DNA from: Candidatus Iainarchaeum sp.
GTDB lineage: Archaea; Iainarchaeota; Iainarchaeia; Iainarchaeales; 0-14-0-20-30-16
Length of the DNA stretch: 24,631 nucleotides
Assembly (NCBI GenBank): GCA_903916665.1
Contig: CAIWXP010000013.1
Span: 1 to 24,631, forward strand
Reading direction: 5' to 3'
Shown here: one piece after another, positions 6,248 through 16,001 of the stretch
Position numbering within the stretch: position 1 is the first letter of the stretch
How the letters are laid out: every line of letters begins with the position of its first letter
Translations under genes and position numbers: made by a program
Notes under the pieces: model-generated
What the model saw: the letters and a program-made list of their open reading frames with translations, nothing else
What the model was told of the DNA's origin: nothing
Databases searched by the model: none

Positions 6248-8500
6248 TTAGGTTCCAACTTTCTCAATAATCTTTTTATGCAAAGCTAATAATATTTTCT
6301 TTCTATCTTCCATTAAAACTATATCTGCATCTGCTAATATTATTAAATTATGAGCAAATGGACTTGCTAAATTACTTTCAGGTAATTGCTCTAATTTAAT
6401 TTTTCCTGTGTTAATTTTATCTAATATTACCAAAGCATTATTTATATCCATGTAGTCTACCATTACTTCTCTAAATACTTCTTCAATAACTGGAAAATTT
6501 TCAATTGCGTCACAAACTTTAAATAAACGATCAGCACTCATCTGTTGACGTCCTGCGGGGTACTCATAGCCTTTATAATTTCTCAAAATCATCAATGATC
6601 TTGTGGCAACATGTCTGAATTTTCTTTTTAATAATTCTGTTTGTTTTAATGCTAGCCTTAATATCCCTGAAAAATTATCTTTTCTAATACTTTTGAATAA
6701 TTCTGATGTGTGTGGGCAAAGTTTTTTATCCTCTGCATGAATTGTTAAAATAAATCCATTATCATTCACACCAATTGGAATACTTCTTTCAACTTGTTTT
6801 GATAAAATAAATGCCAATACTCTTGACAAAGCATCATTAACTCTTCTTCCAAACAATGCATGAAATATTAAATTTTTATTGCCGGCATCATCAATATAAT
6901 CTTCTATAACTATATTATTATTGTTAGGATAAATATTTGTTTTTAGAGAATCTAAAAACTTTTGTTCATAGTAAAAATAATCTGTTATTGCTTTGCTTGC
7001 ATTCAAATCAATTTTATATTCTTTAATTAAGTGATCTTTGATTTCTGTTTTTGTTTTAAATTTACAAAGCACAAAAATCTCACCACGAAATTTTCCTATT
7101 TCTTGAGATAAATCAAAATTCAAAGGTAATTGTTCTGAAAACCAACTAGGTACTGTAGGCTTTCTATCTTTCAAAGCAATAACAAATGCAGTCATTCCTA
7201 ATGAACGAGAAAACTGATAACTTTTTCCCGCCAAAACAAAAATATCTCCTTTTGATAAACGAGCTAGAAAATCTTCCTCTATTGTTCCAATGATATCTCC
7301 TTTTGTTGTTTTAACTTTCACTTTAACTTCATCAGGAATAGTTCCTATGTTCATTGAATATAACATTCTCGCTAATCTTCCTCGCTTTCCAAATTGATTT
7401 AACACAGGATCATACCAAATTTTTCCATAGACGTGTTTATCTTCTAAACTATGATATTCCCCTGACATATATTTTATTACATTCATGTAAGTTTCGTAGG
7501 TTATATCGTTATAACAATAGGATTGCTTAATTAATTCGTAGGCATCTTTGATATACCATTTATTTTCTAGACTTAATCCCATAATATGTTGACACAAAAC
7601 ATCCAAAGCATTTTTTACTATATGAATTCTATCTAACCAGTTTTCTGATGCTTTCTTGAACATTACAGTTGTTTCAACCAAATCATCTCTATCTAAGCAA
7701 ATAACTCTTCCTTTAGATGTTTGATGAATCTTATGCCCAGCTCTTCCAATTCGTTGAAGTGCTCGCGAAACACTTTTAGGTGAGCCTATTTGTATTACTA
7801 AATCAACAAATCCAATATCAATTCCTAATTCTAAACTTGTTGAACTTACAATAACTTTTAATTTTCCTGCTTTCAATTTATTTTCCAATTCTAATCTTGT
7901 TTCTTTTGAAACAGAAGAATGATGCGCACCAATATCTTCATCACTATAGGTTTCAGGATAACTATCTTTTAAATGATGAACTATTCTTTCTGTTCCCGAT
8001 CTTGTATTAGTAAAAATTAAAGTTGTTGTATGGGTTCTAATTTGTTTATCTAAAAAATCATATAATTTTTTGTTTATAGTTTCTGTATCAGTATACATCA
8101 AATCATTTGTTGGACTCATAACAACTATATCCATTGTTTTTGAAAATCTTGCATCTATTACTATACAATCTCTTGGTTCATTATTTTCAAAACCAACTAA
8201 ATATTTCGCAACTTCTTCCAATGGTTCTAGTGTAGCTCCTAAACCAATTCGAACCATTTTATGTTCAACTAAATGTTGTAACCTTTCAATACTTAATGAT
8301 AAATGAGCACCTCTTTTTGAATTTGCTAACTCGTGTATTTCATCAATAACAATATATTTAACACTTTTTAATTTTTCTCTGAATTTTGGAGCACATAATA
8401 ATATTGCTAATGTTTCAGGAGTAGTACATAAAATATGTGGAGGCTTTCTTAATTGTTTAGCTCTTATTTTTGTTTCTGTGTCACCAGTTCTTATTCCCAC
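6248..8500 (-). CDS. lhr: Lhr-family superfamily-2 DNA helicase, C-terminal 750-aa fragment (motif Ib to C-terminus). It is in frame with the upstream fragment across one TAA.
   Basis: RTGDT, PPHILCTTPETL, the DEIH box (VIDEIHEL), FTNTR, SSTSLELGIDIG and QRIGRAGH, followed by Lhr-type WH and C-terminal domains. The tracked start is a GTG that is simply the Val codon of ...LRVGIRTGDT. Confidence 0.85.
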   Translation of the reverse strand: MGIRTGDTETKIRAKQLRKPPHILCTTPETLAILLCAPKFREKLKSVKYIVIDEIHELANSKRGAHLSLSIERLQHLVEHKMVRIGLGATLEPLEEVAKYLVGFENNEPRDCIVIDARFSKTMDIVVMSPTNDLMYTDTETINKKLYDFLDKQIRTHTTTLIFTNTRSGTERIVHHLKDSYPETYSDEDIGAHHSSVSKETRLELENKLKAGKLKVIVSSTSLELGIDIGFVDLVIQIGSPKSVSRALQRIGRAGHKIHQTSKGRVICLDRDDLVETTVMFKKASENWLDRIHIVKNALDVLCQHIMGLSLENKWYIKDAYELIKQSYCYNDITYETYMNVIKYMSGEYHSLEDKHVYGKIWYDPVLNQFGKRGRLARMLYSMNIGTIPDEVKVKVKTTKGDIIGTIEEDFLARLSKGDIFVLAGKSYQFSRSLGMTAFVIALKDRKPTVPSWFSEQLPLNFDLSQEIGKFRGEIFVLCKFKTKTEIKDHLIKEYKIDLNASKAITDYFYYEQKFLDSLKTNIYPNNNNIVIEDYIDDAGNKNLIFHALFGRRVNDALSRVLAFILSKQVERSIPIGVNDNGFILTIHAEDKKLCPHTSELFKSIRKDNFSGILRLALKQTELLKRKFRHVATRSLMILRNYKGYEYPAGRQQMSADRLFKVCDAIENFPVIEEVFREVMVDYMDINNALVILDKINTGKIKLEQLPESNLASPFAHNLIILADADIVLMEDRKKILLALHKKIIEKVGT

Positions 8501-8521
8501 TCTTAGGTCTAATTTTACTTT

Positions 8522-8914
8522 TTATTTCTTTTTTGCGATTTCACTTATTTCTTCTAAAGGAGTAATTAGATTTTTTTCAACATCATTAATCAATGCTTTC
8601 AAAGGACTAATATAGATACAATAAACTTCGTCTTTCAATTCTTGTTTTTCTTCTAAATTACAAAGTTCATTTATTATTGCTCCAAAACCAGAAATAGTTT
8701 TTCCTGATCCTGTTGGCGCAGTTACTAAAGTATTTTTACCTAGGTGAATTGCAGGTATTGATAATCTTTGAGGGGGTGTTAACTTCTTGAAACCTGTTTC
8801 AAACCATTCTCTAACGTAAGGTCTTAAGATAGCAAATACTTCTTTGTCCTCAGGAGCCTTATCGCTGGTAATATACTTAATCATAAAATCACAACATAAA
8901 CATGAATTAATCAA
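8522..8914 (-). CDS. lhr: Lhr-family helicase, N-terminal fragment (Q-motif and Walker A), ending at an in-frame TAA
   Basis: VREWFETGFKKLTPPQRLSIPAIHLGKNTLVTAPTGSGKT ... YISPLKALINDV is the canonical Lhr N-terminus. The likely true start is the second ATG (MIKYI..., 8884). Confidence 0.85.
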   Translation of the reverse strand: MINSCLCCDFMIKYITSDKAPEDKEVFAILRPYVREWFETGFKKLTPPQRLSIPAIHLGKNTLVTAPTGSGKTISGFGAIINELCNLEEKQELKDEVYCIYISPLKALINDVEKNLITPLEEISEIAKKK

Positions 8915-9064: not shown

Positions 9065-10273
9065 CTATTCTATTTGATGATCATCGTAGTTTAGAATTCT
9101 ACCTGCGTCTTCAGATCTATTTTCAGCAGTATAATATTGTGATAGCTTTTGAGACACTCTCGCAAAACCAGCCATATCTTTATGTAATCTATATTGTTCT
9201 CTAGCAAAAAGATATGTTGATTCCAATTCTCTTTTAAAATCAACTAGGGATAATCCAAATGCAGTATAATGATCCCAACCATCCTGGTTTTTTTTTAATT
9301 TATATTTTTTCTCATTATGACTCATATCTGGAACATAGGTATTTTTAATAAATAATGAATCTACGGACTCTGGATAATATTTTGAATATTGATCTCCAGC
9401 GATTTCAAATAAATCTGCAAAATTATTATTATCACCAATTAATGTTGATTTTAAACTATTAATAAATTCTCTAAAACCCATAAAAAATACATAAGCCTCT
9501 ACCGTTTCTTTTATTTGACTCATTTTCCCAGACCTATCTATACTATTATAATTATAGGAAATCGGTTTTTTATATTCTGTAGGATAACTTAAAATTAAAT
9601 ATTTAAAAAAATCATTAAATATGGACTCGCCTAATGATCCACCAAATCTACTACAATAGTCTTTAACAAAATGTATAAAATCAGAGAAATCTGGTAAAAT
9701 TAAACTTTTCTGTTTCCATTTCTGGTCAACTGTTCTAATATCAAATGATCCTGAAATATTATCGACAGAAAAATGTAAAGACAATATGGAACGCACCATA
9801 TTTTTTAAAAAACTATTTCGTTCAAAAATTTCTTTGGGGCTGCTACCAAATTCAAAGCACTTTAAAAAAAGATATTTTAATGCAAATGATTGAACTTTTG
9901 AAGTATAATTTGTATTTACAGAATTTCTAGAATCTAAATATTTTTGTATTATGATTTCAAATCTTTTTGTTCTCCAAAAATCCTCAAATTCAAAAAATAT
10001 AGAATCATTCCCTGACTCCAACGCATTATCAAACAATCCAAAAAAATGATTTTCTATAATTTCTGAATCTTTCTTCGGATCTCCAACTAATAATGATCTA
10101 TCAAATCCCTTAGGTAAATAATCACTATGAGCTTCTTCACGAGATTGATCTGCAGCAATTCTTTTAGCTAATTCAAATTGCCTTAAACGATTTTTTAATT
10201 TTAATTCTTGATTAAAATTACGCCGTTTTCTTAATGCCTCTACTAATCTTTTAAATGTTGGTTTTTCAGCCAT
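9065..10273 (-). CDS. Hypothetical 402-aa protein, last gene of the GHKL-swivel cluster
   Basis: Long uninterrupted ORF that starts 17 nt after the upstream gene. It has a basic N-terminus (KRLVEALRKRRNFNQELKLKNRLRQ) and looks mostly helical. No motif recognised. Confidence 0.7.
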   Translation of the reverse strand: MAEKPTFKRLVEALRKRRNFNQELKLKNRLRQFELAKRIAADQSREEAHSDYLPKGFDRSLLVGDPKKDSEIIENHFFGLFDNALESGNDSIFFEFEDFWRTKRFEIIIQKYLDSRNSVNTNYTSKVQSFALKYLFLKCFEFGSSPKEIFERNSFLKNMVRSILSLHFSVDNISGSFDIRTVDQKWKQKSLILPDFSDFIHFVKDYCSRFGGSLGESIFNDFFKYLILSYPTEYKKPISYNYNSIDRSGKMSQIKETVEAYVFFMGFREFINSLKSTLIGDNNNFADLFEIAGDQYSKYYPESVDSLFIKNTYVPDMSHNEKKYKLKKNQDGWDHYTAFGLSLVDFKRELESTYLFAREQYRLHKDMAGFARVSQKLSQYYTAENRSEDAGRILNYDDHQIE

Positions 10274-10290
10274 AGTTTCACATTTTAATT

Positions 10291-11409
10291 TTATAATTTC
10301 TTTATATCATAGGGTGTTAGATCTTGAGTCATAACTTGTATTTTTAAGTTATTTGGTAAATGCCAAACTATATCTTTAAATACTGCTGCATGACCTGATT
10401 CATATTCATCTAATTTTAATATTTTTGCAATTTCACCATGTATTTTTCCAAACCAAAATGGAATTAATTGTGGATCTATTTCACCAAAAATATCTTTTGC
10501 TTCAATAAATTGTCTAGACATACCATAAACAGCAATAAATTCAGTATATTCTTTTTTAGACAATTTTTTCTTTGCTAATTTAACAATTTTTTCTAATCTT
10601 ACTTTCATTGATTCAAATCTTTGTTGTAAATCTAATGATTTTTGTCTAAATTGAATACTATGAATTACAACATTATAGACCATTAAATTATCGCCTCTAA
10701 CTTTAGCACCATGAAATGGCAATAATTTCATTACTTCTTGATATAATTTATTATCTTTATGTGATTCTAATTCTATAAGTAATTTCTCAATAATTGCATA
10801 ACTATCATCGTATTTTTCCACTGCAACTTTTGCTTTTATATCATCAGAATATTTCTTTAATGTTTTATTTGAAATCATTAAATCATATAACTTAATTCCT
10901 TTCAAAACACTCTTCAAATATAAATCAGCATAGTCACTTTGCAATAAATCTCTTTCCAATTGTAAAACTGATTTATCTTTTTCATCCAGATCTTCCCATA
11001 CAGATACTTTTTCGGCATATTCTCTAACTTTTGAAACATAATAATCATGTAAAGGCCCATCACAAAATAAATAATTTATAATCCAAAATCTATAGCAAAA
11101 TAATTTATGCAGTCTTTGATCGATATCAATTAAAAAATCTAAGTCTTTTTTCTTACAATTATCATAATCTTTTTTTATCTTCTCAAATCCTTGAAACAAA
11201 TCTTTTTGTAAATCAAAACAAGTTTGTCTAAATTTTACAGGATTATTATGAAGTTGTTTTACTAATTTTGTGTAATATTCTTTTATTGGTGGAAACTTTT
11301 TAGGATAATAAACTGTAAAATCTTCAACATCATTAGGTAAAACTTTTGGAAATCTAAATAAATGTTCTATTTCATTCCCCATCATATACCACCCCATTAT
11401 AGGCATCAA
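10291..11409 (-). CDS. Hypothetical 372-aa helical protein, third gene of the GHKL-swivel cluster
   Basis: Long ORF whose 5' end overlaps the GHKL gene stop (11372-11374). The real start is probably one of the internal Met codons (MMGNEIEHL, about 11385/11382), leaving an overlap of about 11-14 nt. No family recognised. Confidence 0.7.
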   Translation of the reverse strand: MMPIMGWYMMGNEIEHLFRFPKVLPNDVEDFTVYYPKKFPPIKEYYTKLVKQLHNNPVKFRQTCFDLQKDLFQGFEKIKKDYDNCKKKDLDFLIDIDQRLHKLFCYRFWIINYLFCDGPLHDYYVSKVREYAEKVSVWEDLDEKDKSVLQLERDLLQSDYADLYLKSVLKGIKLYDLMISNKTLKKYSDDIKAKVAVEKYDDSYAIIEKLLIELESHKDNKLYQEVMKLLPFHGAKVRGDNLMVYNVVIHSIQFRQKSLDLQQRFESMKVRLEKIVKLAKKKLSKKEYTEFIAVYGMSRQFIEAKDIFGEIDPQLIPFWFGKIHGEIAKILKLDEYESGHAAVFKDIVWHLPNNLKIQVMTQDLTPYDIKKL

Positions 11410-12631
11410 CTATTATTTTTTGACCATCTCTAATTCGTTCTGTTGCATTTCTAGTTCCAACTATTGCTGGAATTCCAAATTCTCTTGCAACTATTGCTGC
11501 GTGACATAAAGCCCCACCTTGATCAGTAACAATTGCACTAGCTCTTTGTATTTGTAAAATAAATTGAGGTCTAGTCATACCAGTTACAATTATGCTTCCT
11601 GGTTTTATTCGATCTAATTCTTTAATTGGTGTTTCAGGCCACAAATCAATTACTACCGCAATACCTTCAACTCGTCCCCCACTTGCCGGCAAACCAGAAA
11701 CTATTTTTTGCAATTTAGTATCAAAATCTTTCATGTAATCAATTAATTTCTTTTTCACTTCTTTAAACTCTTTTGATTCTCTAATCCAATCTCTTTTATT
11801 ATGAGTTACAGGAACATGATCCATATGTAATTCACCAATAATCTGTTTATCTTTTTGAGATGAACTAATTGCAAATTTATCGAACGTACTAATTAATCTA
11901 TTCAATCTATAGGTATTAAAACCGAAATAATCCCCCATAGTATCTTTCATTTTAAAACCATACCAACCAGTAACTTTATTTCCAGAAGGCAATTTAATAT
12001 TTATATTGTGTTTCCCTTCAACTGTTAAATTTATAATATATGGTTTACATAATTTATTATTTACTTTTATTTCAACTAAATTATTTTCTAAAAAAGGAGC
12101 AAATCTTTTTGAAAATTCTTCCATTAATCTTGCAACTTCTTTTTCTTCTGTATTAATTCGTAAATTATTTACTTTAATTATTGTTCCAGTAAATAATTTT
12201 GTTTTTTTAACTAATTGCATAGGATATTTTGTCCAAGATCCTGAATCTAACCATTTCTTTTCTGAATATTCAATAAAATATGCAAATTTATCTTTTTCTG
12301 TAGAAGTGTAAATACTAAACTTTTCACCCATACTTGAACAGGCAGTTTTTAATCCTAAACCAAACATTCCCAAAAGTTTTTTCTTTTTAGAAAAACCTAA
12401 TCTTATTGAACTGGCAGCATCTTCTTTAGACATACCAAAACCATTATCTTCAATAACAATTTCTTTTCCAATTGATATTTTTATATTTAATTTTTTGCCT
12501 TCAACTCTAGCATCAATTGAATTATCAACTAATTCTGCAATTGCTTCTGTTAATGAATATCCACTGTTACCCAATTTTAACATTATAGATCTGTGTGGTG
12601 TAATATCAATATACTCTGTCTTTCCAATCAA
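11372..12631 (-). CDS. MORC/Hsp90-type GHKL (Bergerat-fold) ATPase fused to a C-terminal PEP-utilizer mobile ('swivel') phosphohistidine domain
   Basis: GHKL N-box EAIAELVDNSIDA (Asn37), G1 box IEDNGFGM and G2 box GMFGLGLK, then a prokaryotic MORC-like middle region (GFNTYRLNRLI...IIGELHMDHVPVTHNKRDW). The C-terminal approx. 100 aa (GRVEGIAVVI...PGSIIVTGMTRPQFILQIQRASAIVTDQGGALCHAAIVAREFGIPAIVGTRNATERIRDGQKIIVDAYNGVVY) is a textbook PEP-utilizer mobile domain with the phospho-acceptor His retained (His377, codon 11501-11503). Confidence 0.8.
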   Translation of the reverse strand: MIGKTEYIDITPHRSIMLKLGNSGYSLTEAIAELVDNSIDARVEGKKLNIKISIGKEIVIEDNGFGMSKEDAASSIRLGFSKKKKLLGMFGLGLKTACSSMGEKFSIYTSTEKDKFAYFIEYSEKKWLDSGSWTKYPMQLVKKTKLFTGTIIKVNNLRINTEEKEVARLMEEFSKRFAPFLENNLVEIKVNNKLCKPYIINLTVEGKHNINIKLPSGNKVTGWYGFKMKDTMGDYFGFNTYRLNRLISTFDKFAISSSQKDKQIIGELHMDHVPVTHNKRDWIRESKEFKEVKKKLIDYMKDFDTKLQKIVSGLPASGGRVEGIAVVIDLWPETPIKELDRIKPGSIIVTGMTRPQFILQIQRASAIVTDQGGALCHAAIVAREFGIPAIVGTRNATERIRDGQKIIVDAYNGVVYDGE

Positions 12632-12637
12632 AATAAT

Positions 12638-13354
12638 TCACCTCAATCTCATTGGTTTTATTTTTGGTTTATTATTACCTAGTTCACCAATTCTAAATTT
12701 TTTTTCCATTCTTGGTGCGCCAATTACAAAAGGCATAGTTCTAGATCGCCTAATTTCTGGATGGTTTTGTGCCAACTTCATTGCCAATAGTTTTCCAACT
12801 CTACTAGCTTCTTCAACTAAAAAATATGTTGCTTTAGGACTTGGTTTTGTTTCTGTTTCTTTTAATGATCCTCTTTTGAATTTTGTAGGTTTATCTACTC
12901 TTGAAAATGGGCCTCTAATAGTTGCTCCCTTTTCTGATAATTTTGTATCTAATAAAAAATCTCTGACAATTCTTATTTTTCCTGCATGATCTGGAAATTT
13001 TTCTCTCAACGCAGTTTCAACAGCAGGGTCAACAGCAAAAATAATATCTGATTGCGCCAATAAATCAGCAGTTATTGGTTTACTAAATCGTCTAGTGTAT
13101 ATTTGTCCAAAAACTTCTCCTTTCTTTCTCAAATATTCATCCCTAGCAACAATCATTCTATCTCTAACTTCATCATAAAAACGAGGCATTCCTTGTTCTC
13201 TAGCCCATTCTTCGTTTAAAGCAATAACTTTATCTTTAAAACCAGCACTATCAACGTGAACATCTAAATTCAATGCTCTAGCATATTGCTCTAAAAAATG
13301 CGCAATAGTTAAACTTCTTTTTACATTTTCAGCACAAACTACCAAAACATTCAT
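12638..13354 (-). CDS. Divergent low-molecular-weight protein-tyrosine-phosphatase/ArsC-fold protein with a basic C-terminal extension
   Basis: N-terminal P-loop VLVVCAENVKRS (C-X5-R-S; Cys7 codon 13334-13336), VDSAG, and SDIIFAVD...FPDHAGKIRIV. The usual D-P-Y acid loop position reads G-P-F. An extra Lys/Arg-rich tail of about 85 aa follows. Confidence 0.6.
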   Translation of the reverse strand: MNVLVVCAENVKRSLTIAHFLEQYARALNLDVHVDSAGFKDKVIALNEEWAREQGMPRFYDEVRDRMIVARDEYLRKKGEVFGQIYTRRFSKPITADLLAQSDIIFAVDPAVETALREKFPDHAGKIRIVRDFLLDTKLSEKGATIRGPFSRVDKPTKFKRGSLKETETKPSPKATYFLVEEASRVGKLLAMKLAQNHPEIRRSRTMPFVIGAPRMEKKFRIGELGNNKPKIKPMRLR

Positions 13355-13364
13355 TGTATCCCCA

Positions 13365-14276
13365 TTAATCTTTCAACTTATAAGTCTTTAATTCTTCGCC
13401 GAGTTCAGCATCAGGATAGGTAGATTGAACTTCGTGTAATAAAGCATTCAAATCTGTGTATCTTGCACTGAAATTAAAAATTATTAACTTTTTTACTTTT
13501 GCGTTCTTTGCAACTTTACCAACATTATCTGTTACACTGTGAAAATTCTTTCTTGCCAACGCAATATCTTTTTTCATAAACATAGCTTCATGAAATAAAA
13601 CATCAACATTTTCTAAGAAAGTATCATAATCTTTATCAAAACAATCAACAACATAGCCCAGAGATTTTCCGTGTTTTATACTATCTAAATCCATTACATC
13701 TTTAGGATGAATTTTCTTTCCTTTAAATTCAATTGTTTTTCCATCCTGCAATTGTGAATACATTGGACCTTCTGGAATACCCAATGCAACAGCTTTAGCT
13801 TTTAAAAATTTTCCAACTTTATCTTTTTCTTTGAAAACAAAAGCATAGGTCTCTAACAAATGTTTAACTCTTCTTGCAAACACTTGATATTCTTTTGTAT
13901 CACAAACCAAACCATTTGATAACTCTTGATATTTAATAGGATAAACTGTTTGTATTTCATATATTTCCAATAATTTAGTTATTCTTTGTTCTACTCCTCT
14001 CGGACCATAGATAACAACAGGATCCTCTCTTTTATGCAAAGACATTGTTGCCAATAAACCTGGCAAACCTAAGAAATGATCAGCATGAAAATGAGATATG
14101 AAAATTTTATCAATTTCCATATTACTTACTTTAGAACGCATTAACTGTTGTTGAACACCTTCACCAGCATCAAAAAGAATAACTTCGCCATCAAATTTAA
14201 CTGCTAAACAGCTATGATTTCTATCTTTTAAAGGTATTGAACTACTTATACCCAATAATGTTGCTTGAAATACCAT
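13365..14276 (-). CDS. rnz: Ribonuclease Z (tRNA 3' endonuclease, metallo-beta-lactamase fold)
   Basis: 303 aa with the HxHxDH motif ISHFHADHFLGLPGLL, N-terminal LGISSSIP...RNHSCLAV, and a typical short-form RNase Z length. Confidence 0.85.
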   Translation of the reverse strand: MVFQATLLGISSSIPLKDRNHSCLAVKFDGEVILFDAGEGVQQQLMRSKVSNMEIDKIFISHFHADHFLGLPGLLATMSLHKREDPVVIYGPRGVEQRITKLLEIYEIQTVYPIKYQELSNGLVCDTKEYQVFARRVKHLLETYAFVFKEKDKVGKFLKAKAVALGIPEGPMYSQLQDGKTIEFKGKKIHPKDVMDLDSIKHGKSLGYVVDCFDKDYDTFLENVDVLFHEAMFMKKDIALARKNFHSVTDNVGKVAKNAKVKKLIIFNFSARYTDLNALLHEVQSTYPDAELGEELKTYKLKD

Positions 14277-14387: not shown

Positions 14388-16001
14388 ATGCAAAAGGTAT
14401 TTGACACTTCAGCTTTTCTAAATAGATTCTTCTTCAATGACATTGAAAATGTGATAACAACTAATTCTGTATTATTAGAAATAAAAAATAGAGAACAAAA
14501 AATGCAAATTGAAAATCTAATTCAAAGAGGAAAAATTCAAATACAAGACCCTTCAAAAGAAATATTTATTCAAATAAGAGCCAAAGCGCCCAAAATGCTA
14601 TCAAGAACAGATGTTGAAGTGGTAGCATTAGCAAAAGAATTAAACCTAGAATTGCATACTGATGATTTTATGATGCGAAAATTTTGTAATGATTTGAAAA
14701 TTAAAGCTTGCCCAATTGCCTATGCTATGCAAGACAATGAAAATATTTTAGATACTGTTTATGAAAAAATAAAACCTACAAAAGAAGAATTAGAAAATAT
14801 TAAAAAAATAAGTAAAGAAATTATTGCAAAATTGAACATAACAGTAAAAAAAGAAAACTATCCAATTAAAAAAATTATATTGGCAGGATCTAGTCCGAGA
14901 GGTACTTTTATTAGCAATAAAAAAGATCTAGATATATTTTTATTATTTGATTTATCTTTAACTGTTGAAGATATTAGAAAATACAATGAATTAATATTGC
15001 GTAAGACATTTCCAAAAATTAAATTTAGAGAAGAATATGGGGAACACCCTTATTTGAAAGCAGTTATAGATGATCACAATATTGATTTCGTTCCTGGATT
15101 TTATATAAAAAACATAAAAGAAAGAAAATCTTCCGTTGATAGAACACCTTTACATTTAGCTTTTTTAAATAAACATCAAAGTGAAGAAATTAAAAAACAG
15201 GTTATTATTTTAAAACAATTTTTAAAGAATAATTTGCTTTATGGAGCCGATCAAAAAAACAATGGTTTTTCTGGATATTTAACAGAACTTTTAATATTAG
15301 AGTTTAAAACATTTGAAAACACATTAAAAGAATTAATTGATATTGAAAAAAATAAATATATTTACATCAATAAACCCAAAATAATGAAAAAGTTTGACGA
15401 TTACTTTGTTTTCCTAGATCCTACTGATGAATCAAGAAACGTTGCTTCTGCAGTATCAAAAAAAACAATGAGCATATTCAAAGATGTTGCAAAAAGATAT
15501 TTAAATGAAAAGAATATTGATTTCTTTTTCAAAGATATTTATCCAAAAATAGAAAAGGATCTGGTTTGTTTTATTATAAAAATTGATGGAAAAACAGAAG
15601 ATTCAAATTGGGGAATAGTAAAAGGACTAACAAAAAGATTGGCAAATGAATTAAATACAAAACACTATAATGTTGTTAACCATTCTGGAATAATTCATGA
15701 AAATAAAGGATTGATCATTTTAGAGAGTAAATTAAAGGATACATTGAGAGGCCCTGAATTAAAGGACACAAAAAATTCAAAAGCATTTAAAGCAAAACAT
15801 AAAACTTTCTATATCAAAGACAATAGGCTATACTGCGATGTTAATTTATCAAAAGAAGCATTGGTTAAAGATTCTAAAAAGCTTTTGAAAAGTTTATCTA
15901 ACAATAGTGCAAAACTAATTGATTATAAAACCATTAAACTAATGCCCGAAGAATTAAAAAGAATTAGAAAGGACTTTTTAAACCCAAAGGAAAAGGATTA
16001 A
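14388..16001 (+). CDS. cca: Fusion protein: N-terminal Nob1-like PIN nuclease domain plus archaeal class I CCA-adding enzyme (tRNA nucleotidyltransferase)
   Basis: Residues 1-112 (VFDTSAFL...TTNSVLLEIKNRE...LSRTDVEVVALAKELNLELHTDDFMMRKFCNDLKI) resemble the archaeal Nob1 PIN domain and retain the acidic residues D6/E31/D75/D92. No zinc ribbon is present. Residues from about 118 onward carry class I CCA motifs: LAGSSPRGTFISNKKDLDIFLLF, EHPYL, VDFVPGF, SSVDRTPLH and GFSGYLTELLILEF. Confidence 0.8.
   Translation: MQKVFDTSAFLNRFFFNDIENVITTNSVLLEIKNREQKMQIENLIQRGKIQIQDPSKEIFIQIRAKAPKMLSRTDVEVVALAKELNLELHTDDFMMRKFCNDLKIKACPIAYAMQDNENILDTVYEKIKPTKEELENIKKISKEIIAKLNITVKKENYPIKKIILAGSSPRGTFISNKKDLDIFLLFDLSLTVEDIRKYNELILRKTFPKIKFREEYGEHPYLKAVIDDHNIDFVPGFYIKNIKERKSSVDRTPLHLAFLNKHQSEEIKKQVIILKQFLKNNLLYGADQKNNGFSGYLTELLILEFKTFENTLKELIDIEKNKYIYINKPKIMKKFDDYFVFLDPTDESRNVASAVSKKTMSIFKDVAKRYLNEKNIDFFFKDIYPKIEKDLVCFIIKIDGKTEDSNWGIVKGLTKRLANELNTKHYNVVNHSGIIHENKGLIILESKLKDTLRGPELKDTKNSKAFKAKHKTFYIKDNRLYCDVNLSKEALVKDSKKLLKSLSNNSAKLIDYKTIKLMPEELKRIRKDFLNPKEKD

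Follow-up and report, generated by a model that had tools for sequence, protein, structure and literature searches.

The locus described here lies in a 24.6-kb stretch of archaeal DNA, called the window below (by which we mean the whole stretch that was analysed). Three genes are adjacent there: one for an LMWPc-like phosphatase-fold protein, gene A and gene B (Table 1). Gene A encodes a protein in which a GHKL ATPase and an S5-fold transducer are followed by a swivel phosphohistidine domain of the type found in PEP synthase (PPS). The TTG codon at 12631 is preceded by GAGGTGA, and it must be the start of A since the conserved N-terminus (I8, D9, I10, P12) needs that start. The stop of the LMWPc-like gene is 6 nt upstream of it. 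The flanks of the A operon consist of housekeeping genes, which vary from locus to locus.

Table 1. Genes, domains and key residues at the locus, in window coordinates
Feature	Positions	Strand	Remarks
Gene A, GHKL-S5-swivel protein	11372..12631	(-)	419 aa; TTG start 12631, TGA stop 11372-11374
MORC-type GHKL (Bergerat) ATPase domain of A	12032..12631	(-)	residues ~1-200; also holds D62-G66 and G88-K95
Codon of E33 (GHKL domain)	12533-12535
Codon of N37 (GHKL domain)	12521-12523
S5-fold transducer domain of A	11717..12031	(-)	residues ~201-305
K279 (transducer)	11795-11797		motif THNK
PPS-type swivel phosphohistidine domain of A	11375..11716	(-)	residues ~306-419
His377 (swivel)	11501-11503
Gene B	10291..11385	(-)	~364 aa, all-alpha; likely start ATG 11385 or 11382
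LMWPc-like phosphatase-fold gene	12638..13354	(-)	238 aa; P-loop C7-X5-R13-S14; LMWPc E 6.2e-8

The original prediction, made from the letters of the DNA, was that a GHKL ATPase and a PPS-type swivel are joined in one polypeptide, and this is borne out by profile and fold comparisons alike. The Pfam matches are HATPase_c_3 (residues 25-125, E 3.8e-20), Morc6_S5 (residues 216-302, E 1.7e-11) and PEP-utilizers (residues 342-413, E 3.7e-26, over the whole profile, 72/72), and the NCBIfam model of PEP synthase matches the swivel at 1.3e-33. In a sequence profile search of the PDB the C-terminus finds PEP synthase (8a8e, 1e-31) and the N-terminus MORC3 (1e-19), with the pyruvate-kinase entries 2e28 and 3t05 also among the matches. 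The AF2 model of A (pLDDT 89.4, pTM 0.77) has MORC3, MORC2 and MORC4 as its closest PDB folds in Foldseek, then TRAP1/Hsp90 and SMCHD1, and the matches to MORC2/3/4 cover both the GHKL and the S5 domain. The linker from GHKL-S5 to the swivel is about 8 residues long. All the motifs that had been pointed out (N-box Asn37, DNGFG, GLGLK and a canonical His377) are indeed present: ELVDNSIDA holds E33 and N37, DNGFG and GMFGLGLK follow, and the swivel motif, TDQGGALCHAAIV, contains H377. The lysine typical of MORC transducers, K279, is found within PVTHNKRDW. Neither a PEP/pyruvate TIM barrel nor an ATP-grasp domain (PPDK_N) was detected in A with Pfam and NCBIfam; the absence of an acceptor domain from this polypeptide had also been foreseen.

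The same residues stand out in the family. In an alignment of 84 homologues of A (mean column identity 63%) the positions E33, N37, D62/G66, G88-K95, H277, K279 and H377 are invariant, and T150 is kept in at least 90% of the sequences. The swivel is the most conserved domain; its G372, G373, H377, A378, R383 and E384 do not vary, and it follows the dikinase pattern GGxxxHAAxxARE. Bacterial and archaeal members are about 44% identical over their whole length, their swivels alone about 50%. Of the 120 best database matches to A, every full-length protein has this three-domain architecture, which is therefore neither a fortuitous fusion nor a chimera made in assembly. The family occurs in CPR/Patescibacteria, in DPANN archaea and in low-GC gut Clostridia; the genomes are very small, some of them among the smallest on record, and the operon is present in one copy in each locus examined. 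The closest relatives without a swivel are proteins of 526-678 aa, about 40% identical to A over GHKL-S5 and equipped with other C-terminal domains, which in one of them include Sigma70_r4 and a DnaA_C HTH. A neighbourhood of GHKL and PPS-like genes in two other loci (L057 and L058) was set aside as a coincidence, being an ordinary mutL-miaA operon beside a large PPS-like gene.

We disagree with the original prediction regarding the parallel with histidine kinases. It is true that two-component histidine kinases also have a GHKL nucleotide domain and a phospho-accepting histidine in one protein. However, the histidine of A is on a PPS-type, beta-rich swivel and not on a DHp/HisKA helix, and A possesses a transducer. 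No HisKA/DHp-type domain was matched in A with Pfam, hence its GHKL module is not of the histidine-kinase class; neither a HisKA domain nor a response-regulator partner was found in A or its loci. The generic HATPase_c model scores far lower (2.7e-8) than HATPase_c_3. Judged by its motifs, the module belongs to the hydrolytic MORC/GHL class, with E33 as the general base and K279 in the S5 transducer. With MORC2/3/4 and the prokaryotic MORC-like proteins A shares GHKL motifs I-IV, the S5 domain with its THNK lysine, and the N-terminal strap, but it carries a swivel where these proteins would have a coiled coil, a CW zinc finger or another domain for dimerisation or DNA binding. Indeed, neither a coiled coil nor a CW zinc finger nor another canonical MORC dimerisation module was found in A, whose residues 306-419 are the swivel. 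From the conserved strap (I8-S15) and the catalytic residues, A is predicted to dimerise and to hydrolyse ATP as MORC proteins do. By analogy, DNA is suggested as a target of A and B, the basis being the MORC ancestry and the HTH-bearing sister protein.

Another possible reading is anti-phage defence or a conflict system with a prokaryotic MORC at its centre, comparable to the MORC/GHKL proteins of restriction-modification and defence islands. PADLOC and NCBIfam do give weak, partial GHKL matches to MzaB and to a BbrUII/HgiDII-type restriction enzyme, and a phage-like region lies about 3 kb downstream in one locus (L008). However, both matches are confined to the generic GHKL core and stay far below threshold: MzaB is matched over residues 12-113 with 34-41 bits (cut-off 850), the restriction enzyme with 42 bits (cut-off 550). 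Conserved defence neighbours are absent, B has no significant match, full-length A was not found on plasmids and B was not found in phages. In our opinion a role in defence is very improbable.

The gene that most constantly accompanies A is B, which lies directly downstream in 33 of the 33 non-redundant loci and whose start overlaps the stop of A by 11-14 nt. On this arrangement B is an obligate, translationally coupled partner of A, and so the suggestion that partners are to be sought among the neighbouring orphan proteins was right for B. It does not hold for the second orphan (9065-10273), which resembles none of the other components (B, LMWPc-like, or the C, D and E described below) and has a counterpart in none of the 33 loci. 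The B proteins of the family are about 370 aa long. The AF2 model of B consists of 18 helices (pLDDT 95.9, pTM 0.89). No match was obtained for its sequence in Pfam, NCBIfam or the PDB, nor for its model with Foldseek in the PDB or BFVD. A profile of B run against 1.84 billion representative proteins yielded 49 matches, every one of them B-like, and no remote homologues or fusions. Its polar residues N12, D13, K24, K88, C91, Y146, D148, Y150, K291, D292 and D298 (numbering of alignment A2) are invariant. Three possible origins of B were rejected, with an hhalign probability below 1% in each case: a detached C-terminal domain of the swivel-less MORC-like sisters, the detached X domain of the split Rph-like proteins introduced below, and a relative of the Nitrosopumilaceae downstream partner.

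Phosphatase folds are the next recurrent element. Bacterial loci have His_Phos_1-like proteins, C or E, and archaeal loci have LMWPc-like ones. Protein C carries RHG and HG motifs and matches His_Phos_1 at 2.9e-6; E is related to it (hhalign 93%). Genes of the LMWPc-like kind adjoin A and B in L144 and L003 and, more weakly, in L001 and L143. The gene of the window evolves fast, and a direct homologue search with its LMWPc-like protein returned the query alone. From its position this gene is probably the phosphatase, or a phospho-acceptor, of the archaeal version of the system. An acylphosphatase is found in three loci.

The original prediction further held that GHKL is the only nucleotide-binding module. 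This is correct for the polypeptide but not for the operon: a stand-alone ATP-grasp gene of the PPS/Rph type, D, is in the same operon in 20 of the 22 loci with enough flanking DNA. The usual gene order is A-B-C-D, and other conserved neighbours are absent. D is closest to the N-terminal domain of PPS (PRK06464, residues 3-314 against 6-339, E 5.7e-97), and it also matches the N-terminus of Rph/PRK06241 from end to end (E 7e-86 to 1e-94). It conserves the motifs GGK..LGE, VAVRSSA..ED, Q.M and PqDIEW. As far as the sequence tells, D is a complete PPS/Rph N-terminal ATP-grasp, i.e. the canonical charger of swivel histidines. Moreover, L037 and L030 encode D-X-swivel fusion proteins whose N-terminal parts share 59-75% identity with D, and these fusions provide a Rosetta-stone link of D with this kind of swivel domain. 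In related loci, split Rph-like proteins of the form "X-swivel" occur in arrays; their X region matches the part of PRK06241 that binds the substrate. The Rph/PPS-like enzymes of CPR and DPANN organisms come in pieces, with a single ATP-grasp subunit for many swivel client proteins, an arrangement that is apparently undescribed. In L101 and in type-2 loci the only D is part of another swivel protein or its neighbour, so that D may mainly serve that protein.

Our preferred reading, to which we give a little less than an even chance, is that D charges His377 of A and the phosphatase-like protein removes the phosphate again, the A-B complex being either switched by this cycle or the acceptor for it. 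Gene A would then be central to a conserved phosphotransfer module of several components (A, B, D and a phosphatase-fold protein), which we likewise propose tentatively. First, D would bind ATP and phosphorylate His377 on the mobile swivel in trans, by the reaction known from PEP synthase and rifampin phosphotransferase; the conserved operon, the D-swivel fusions and the intact catalytic motifs on both sides speak for this step. Second, the phosphorylated swivel would redock on the complex of GHKL-S5 and B and set its state. Here we rely on analogy with PykA, whose PEPut domain is regulatory. Third, the phosphatase-fold protein would remove or relay the phosphate and so close the cycle, as suggested by the way in which a phosphatase fold is repeatedly exchanged for an unrelated one. 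The alternative offered in the original prediction, an ATPase gated by phosphorylation of its histidine, is close to this explanation and plausible.

Regulation of an enzyme through the phosphorylation of an attached swivel/PEPut domain has a precedent: pyruvate kinase of the PykA type is regulated by the phosphorylation state of its PEPut domain (PMC9009071). PykA of B. subtilis and the Geobacillus pyruvate kinase (2E28) also have a C-terminal swivel/PEPut with no ATP-grasp in cis. A differs from PykA in having LCH instead of TSH, a different host enzyme, and an operon with a dedicated ATP-grasp and phosphatase-fold protein. The PTS (Enzyme I, DhaM-DhaL) likewise uses a swivel histidine as a mobile phosphoryl carrier to separate proteins, but the donor in the A system would probably be ATP via ATP-grasp and not PEP via a TIM barrel; Pfam and NCBIfam profiles detected no HPr, EIIA or EIIB homologues in the A system. 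The phosphatase-like fold of the LMW-PTP-like EIIB is able to serve as a pCys carrier, and the phosphatase-fold proteins of our loci could instead be relay acceptors (pHis/pCys).

The weak point of charging by D is the window itself. With four D proteins as tblastn queries no D gene was found in its 24.6 kb, and the related locus L001 has none within 8 kb. In the organism of the window D would be encoded elsewhere in the genome, or replaced; charging by D is an assumption for this subclade. These two loci are an argument for a histidine-kinase-like autophosphorylation of independent origin, in line with the original prediction: the GHKL domain would pass the gamma-phosphate of ATP to His377 of its own swivel or that of its dimer partner. 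The invariant fusion of both domains in A and the precedent of GHKL-to-histidine transfer in histidine kinases point the same way, and the short linker together with the pTM of the model suggests a defined arrangement of GHKL-S5 and swivel. Against this stand the canonical charger in the operon of most informative loci and the lack of a HisKA/DHp-like element in A. Further, E33, K279 and the N-terminal strap place A in the MORC/GHL class, where transducer and dimer partner close around the gamma-phosphate. Finally, the swivel of the window and that of an archaeal homologue with a linked D share 67% identity, hence the swivel is under the same constraint with or without a linked D. Autophosphorylation is therefore less parsimonious than charging by D, and we consider it improbable.

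A more serious competitor accepts charging by D and differs in what follows. In every characterised family the pair of D and a swivel is a catalytic phosphotransfer device, and full PPS-like conservation of the swivel is equally compatible with catalytic transfer to an acceptor and with regulation. The system would then be an Rph/PPS-like enzyme in pieces, to which D, A (through its swivel) and an acceptor site contribute; His377~P would be passed on to a substrate that B or GHKL-S5 binds, and the phosphatase-fold protein or the acylphosphatase would act on the product. This substrate might be a small molecule, the end of a nucleic acid or B itself, through a hydroxyl or carboxyl. Rph/PRK06241 has the same set of elements (ATP-grasp, swivel histidine and a non-TIM-barrel acceptor domain), its C-terminus is matched by the swivel of A at E 7.9e-20, and split versions of it occur in loci related to A. 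A has GHKL-S5 where the split Rph-like proteins have X; the many invariant polar residues of B would suit an active or binding site, and the acylphosphatase hints at an acyl-phosphate species. However, in the A system the parts are on separate polypeptides, and the GHKL-S5 ATPase and B replace the acceptor domain without any similarity of either to the substrate domain of Rph. Searches of A, B, C, D and E for an acceptor domain (PEP/pyruvate TIM barrel or Rph-type substrate domain) gave no match, and B resembles neither X nor Rph nor any known ligand-binding fold. All residues for ATP hydrolysis are kept in the GHKL domain, which a mere substrate scaffold would not need. A kinase and a phosphatase of one operon acting on one metabolite would make a futile cycle, and the replacement of His_Phos_1 by LMWPc fits a phosphoprotein target more easily than a specific metabolite. 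We regard a split enzyme of this kind as unlikely, though still worth considering. The comparison with PEP synthase and PPDK is similar: the swivel of A and D are both most similar to PEP synthase, but the TIM barrel is absent from A and from the conserved operon, and the threonine two residues before the histidine of dikinases (TSH/TCH), which is regulated by PDRP/PSRP, is a leucine in A (L375-C376-H377).

It may also be asked why an intact ATPase site and an intact swivel are fused, and conserved together with D. DhaM re-phosphorylates the ADP cofactor of DhaL, and in a similar manner His377~P, loaded by D, might re-phosphorylate ADP kept in the GHKL pocket, so that the clamp is driven without nucleotide exchange. 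Such recharging in situ would account for the fusion, but it is purely inferential, costs the conversion of ATP to AMP to regain one ATP, and leaves B and the phosphatase unexplained; we think it highly improbable. In a broader form, A, B, D and the phosphatase-fold protein may be a new machine, in which a phosphohistidine relay is coupled mechanically or chemically to a MORC-class GHKL clamp. Possible couplings are an exchange between the phosphohistidine of the swivel and the nucleotide of the Bergerat pocket (from GHKL to histidine or from histidine to ADP), or a B that is an enzyme or acceptor of new fold. This we find rather unlikely. If it were true, CPR, DPANN and reduced gut Clostridia would share a dedicated energy-state-sensing ATPase without counterpart in model organisms.

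Whichever mechanism is correct, the operon family appears to be new, in that both halves of A are textbook modules and their union was hitherto undescribed; no account of the GHKL/MORC-swivel architecture or of its operon was found in the searchable full-text literature. MORC/GHKL ATPases are controlled by nucleotide, by partner proteins and, in eukaryotes, by chromatin marks, and we know of none that is controlled by a covalent phosphohistidine carrier. To our knowledge, swivel domains have been known only from metabolic dikinases, PTS Enzyme I, enzymes of the Rph/PigC type and pyruvate kinase. The four proteins are small and soluble-looking, and thus the competing mechanisms are directly testable in vitro. 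Strong conservation in streamlined genomes suggests that the A family has an important function. In an abundant lineage of human-gut Clostridia one 90% cluster of the family comprises 613 member sequences, counted on 244 contigs.

As the original prediction had it, the 419-residue protein A joins a GHKL ATPase to a swivel His domain; Pfam, PDB fold matches and PDB-sequence profile matches agree on this, and the motifs listed for it (ELVDN37SIDA, D62NGFG66, G88MFGLGLK95 and TDQGGALCH377AAIV) are all present. What the prediction overlooked is the middle domain, an S5-fold transducer with the MORC signature THNK (Lys279). Stated more precisely, the N-terminal part of A is a MORC-type GHKL plus transducer module. 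A profile search against PDB sequences relates the N-terminus to MORC3 (1e-19) and the C-terminus to PEP synthase (1e-31), and profile and structure searches together confirm both the Bergerat fold and the PEP-utilizer domain. The AlphaFold2 model, built from an 84-sequence alignment, is confident (pLDDT 89.4, pTM 0.77), with disorder limited to residues 20-22 and 84-91, the latter being the ATP lid; its best PDB fold matches are, in order, MORC3, MORC2 and MORC4, followed by TRAP1/Hsp90 and SMCHD1. The start codon follows the upstream gene's stop by 6 nt and, on our reading of the sequence, has GAGGTGA ahead of it. A later start is excluded by the strongly conserved N-terminus (I8, D9, I10, P12, S15).

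Features of the window, with domain positions in residues of protein A
Feature	Position	Strand	Details
Gene A	11372-12631	-	ORF, 419 aa; start TTG 12631
HATPase_c_3	A residues 25-125	-	Pfam E 3.8e-20
Morc6_S5	A residues 216-302	-	Pfam E 1.7e-11
PEP-utilizers	A residues 342-413	-	Pfam E 3.7e-26, entire profile covered
LMWPc-like gene	12638-13354	-	adjoins A upstream; P-loop C7-X5-R13-S14; Pfam 6e-8
Orphan gene	9065-10273	-	402 aa; directly downstream of B, 17-nt gap
Lhr-type (PRK13767) ATP-dependent helicase	6248-8914	-	two same-frame ORFs, 8522-8914 and 6248-8500
Archaeal-type CCA-adding enzyme	14388-16001	+	NTP_transf_2 + tRNA_NucTransf2; N-terminal PIN_6 ribonuclease domain (residues 4-85)
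RNase Z	13365-14276		divergent from the CCA-adding enzyme gene

Searching 5.8 billion proteins with A gave 1672 matches. Architecture was inspected in the best 120 of these, among which all full-length proteins have 404-441 residues and carry both GHKL and swivel domains. Named hosts are Patescibacteria/CPR (Colwell-, Kuenen-, Campbell-, Vogel- and Nomurabacteria, Parcubacteria) and DPANN archaea (Woesearchaeota, Nanoarchaeia); the window itself is archaeal (Cdc6/Orc1, L10e, archaeal-type CCA-adding enzyme, TrmB; ~27% GC). The family also occurs in low-GC Clostridia MAGs from the human gut, where a single 90% cluster comprises 613 members spread over 244 contigs, with sporulation genes (SpoIID, sigma-F operon) among its neighbours. 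Public annotation refers to these proteins as 'ATP-binding protein', 'PEP-utilizing enzyme' or 'phosphohistidine swiveling domain-containing protein'. Across 84 sequences the invariant residues are E33, D36, N37, D40, D62, G66, G88, G91, G93, K95 and T96 in the GHKL domain, H277 and K279 in the transducer, and T350, M352, T353, R354, P355, G372, G373, H377, R383 and E384 in the swivel, which is the best-conserved domain. Hence purifying selection acts on the ATPase site and the phosphohistidine site alike.

In our opinion, A is more interesting in its genomic context than as a lone protein. We pooled 33 non-redundant loci from four sources: contig look-ups for eight A homologues, a species-representative genome scan, a metagenome scan seeded with the gene downstream of A, and local HMM and BLAST analysis. 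That downstream gene, B (~360-390 aa), lies immediately 3' of A in 33/33 loci, its start overlapping the A stop by 11-14 nt (in the window, ATG 11385/11382 and TGA 11372-11374). D, a stand-alone PPDK_N protein of 236-315 aa, belongs to the same gene string in 20 of the 22 loci whose downstream sequence extends for ~2.5 kb or more. The commonest order is A-B-C-D, where C (270-365 aa, 16 loci) belongs to the histidine phosphatase superfamily and has conserved RHG and HG motifs (His_Phos_1 E 2.9e-6, above the Pfam cut-off). Seven 'type 2' loci have E, a distant relative of C (hhalign 93%), in its place, plus an additional swivel-bearing protein. In archaeal loci an LMWPc-like gene takes the place of C/E; it is directly upstream of A also in locus L144, and downstream in L003. 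Two further loci, from close archaeal relatives, L001 (7297-7947) and L143 (4203-4901), have upstream of A a more divergent gene with a weak LMWPc-like alignment (hhalign 65%) and a shortened P-loop, C-X4-R-S (CYGNTRS) versus C-X5-R-S, a change that may have modified or abolished its chemistry. An acylphosphatase gene is found in three loci. No other conserved neighbours were found in the 33 loci, which indicates a self-contained operon rather than a by-product of synteny.

Several observations on these neighbourhoods may be added. The LMWPc-like protein of the window has a long, very basic, K/R-rich C-terminal extension (residues ~150-238; …KPTKFKRGSLKETETKPSPK…RRSRT…KKFRIGELGNNKPKIKPMRLR); no homologues of the protein were detectable. 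A double HTH_AsnC/HTH_24 regulator, oriented divergently, is conserved upstream in L001, L143 and L144 but not in the window. Three gut-metagenome assemblies of the Clostridia lineage, independent of one another, each have the operon at the end of a 274-308 kb contig (L005-L007) that stops ~230 bp past D; this suggests a repeat, e.g. an rRNA operon or IS element, directly downstream.

The original prediction suggested that the acceptor site may lie in the neighbouring orphans; one of these, B, is an obligate partner of A. The model of B is an 18-helix all-alpha fold of very high confidence (pLDDT 95.9, pTM 0.89). B has no match in Pfam, NCBIfam, PADLOC or PDB sequences, and its model has none by Foldseek in PDB and BFVD (best E 0.25, TM < 0.25). 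Only 49 relatives exist among 1.84 billion representative proteins, all B-sized or fragments. Its invariant polar and aromatic residues suggest, at the level of sequence, a functional site, and B is acidic (median pI 5.5) versus basic A (8.4). The other orphan, the 402-aa protein, is probably not a component: it resembles none of them, gave no match in Pfam, NCBIfam or PADLOC, and lacks a counterpart in the 33 related loci.

Over its whole length D aligns with the N-terminal ATP-grasp of PEP synthase (residues 3-314 of D on 6-339 of PRK06464; E 5.7e-97) and with that of Rph-like PRK06241 enzymes, and keeps the nucleotide-binding motifs of the family. In two loci (L037, L030) a D sequence (59-75% identity) is the N-terminus of D-X-swivel fusion proteins. 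There are also long tandem arrays (L028-L049, e.g. L034 51-9351, L031, L038, L042) of up to about 8-10 X-swivel paralogues of 350-520 aa, each with a C-terminal swivel His domain and an N-terminal X part matching the substrate-binding region of PRK06241 enzymes. One PPDK_N ATP-grasp, stand-alone or fused, accompanies them; D itself stands alone within arrays. Hosts are CPR, Woese-/Nanoarchaeota, Methanosarcinales, Aminicenantes and 'Gammaproteobacteria' MAGs. Fusions and arrays together imply that in these lineages an Rph/PPS-like enzyme often comes in pieces, with a single ATP-grasp subunit for several client proteins that carry a swivel. A belongs to these clients, its MORC ATPase standing where the others have X. 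The arrays are apparently an undescribed expansion of split Rph-like phosphotransferases.

Who, then, charges His377? In one of its two readings, the original prediction gave this role to the GHKL domain of A, and indeed no D lies within reach of A in the window or in L001. At the family level this is probably wrong, and we regard such autophosphorylation as improbable, given D in 20/22 loci. The GHKL domain of A is of the hydrolytic GHL/MORC class (ExxxN general base E33, transducer lysine K279, conserved N-terminal strap), in which transducer and dimer partner close over the gamma-phosphate, and this disfavours a histidine kinase. By Pfam, A also lacks a DHp/HisKA-like element, and beside a self-charging GHKL domain a second dedicated ATP-using loader, D, would be redundant. 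D is favoured since, to our knowledge, its type is the sole kind of enzyme loading such swivels from ATP, since it is inherited together with A in bacteria and archaea alike, and since the window swivel is equally similar to a D-linked archaeal homologue (67% identity) and a D-unlinked one (64%).

What the data show directly is how A is built, that both its catalytic sites are conserved, that B is its obligate partner, that it is linked in operons to D and to a phosphatase-fold protein, and that relatives have D fused to a swivel. We propose that D would phosphorylate His377 in trans using ATP, as in PPS and Rph; that C/E or the LMWPc-like protein would remove or relay the phosphate; and that the swivel's phosphorylation state would control the A-B ATPase complex, or the phosphate be consumed by it. 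To a phosphorelay of this kind, regulating an ATPase, we give slightly less than an even chance. The fully PPS-like swivel fits equally a true catalytic transfer to B, to a B ligand or to GHKL-bound nucleotide, and a split catalytic dikinase, though rather unlikely, deserves consideration. A regulatory cycle is favoured over a metabolic product because loader and phosphatase-fold protein share one operon, and because the latter is swapped for an unrelated fold between bacteria and archaea. Control by a swivel domain has a documented precedent in B. subtilis pyruvate kinase, whose PEPut domain regulates its host enzyme by its own phosphorylation state (PMC9009071). Recharging of ADP in situ seems to us very improbable. 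A defence role is not supported by searches of PADLOC, NCBIfam, plasmid/phage sequences and neighbourhoods.

A swivel-less sister family (L011-L024, L027, L072) consists of MORC-like GHKL-S5 proteins of 487-678 aa, ~35-45% identical to A over residues 1-300 (the closest, of 526-678 aa, ~40% over GHKL-S5), from Micrarchaeota, Paceibacteria, Kaiserbacteria, Nitrosopumilaceae and a haloarchaeon. The Kaiserbacteria protein (L019 4480-6516) ends in Sigma70_r4 and Bac_DnaA_C HTH domains, and in the Nitrosopumilaceae loci a ~370-aa gene with no relation to B is conserved downstream. MORC ancestry and this family with one HTH-bearing member suggest, by analogy, a possible DNA-related role for A.

In its working the module would come closest to a split dikinase of the Rph/PPS type, or to a PTS-like relay, that feeds a MORC-class ATPase, yet it belongs to none of the dikinase, PTS and MORC families proper. 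Unlike a dikinase, A has neither an ATP-grasp nor an acceptor domain in cis; it departs from canonical MORC proteins at the C-terminus, and from histidine kinases in having a transducer instead of a DHp domain. Full-text literature searches found no published description of the architecture or the operon. The finding is real and undescribed: A is the core of a four-component system, including a partner of new fold, conserved in CPR, DPANN and reduced gut Clostridia. We see an appreciable, though minor, chance that the coupling of a phosphohistidine carrier to a Bergerat-fold ATPase is mechanistically new.

Elsewhere in the window, the fusion of PIN domain and CCA-adding enzyme looks unusual. 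The two helicase ORFs are parted by a single in-frame TAA (8522-8524) within an A-rich run (aaaaagaaaTAAaaagtaaaa), which could be a pseudogene point mutation, a sequencing error or a site of read-through.
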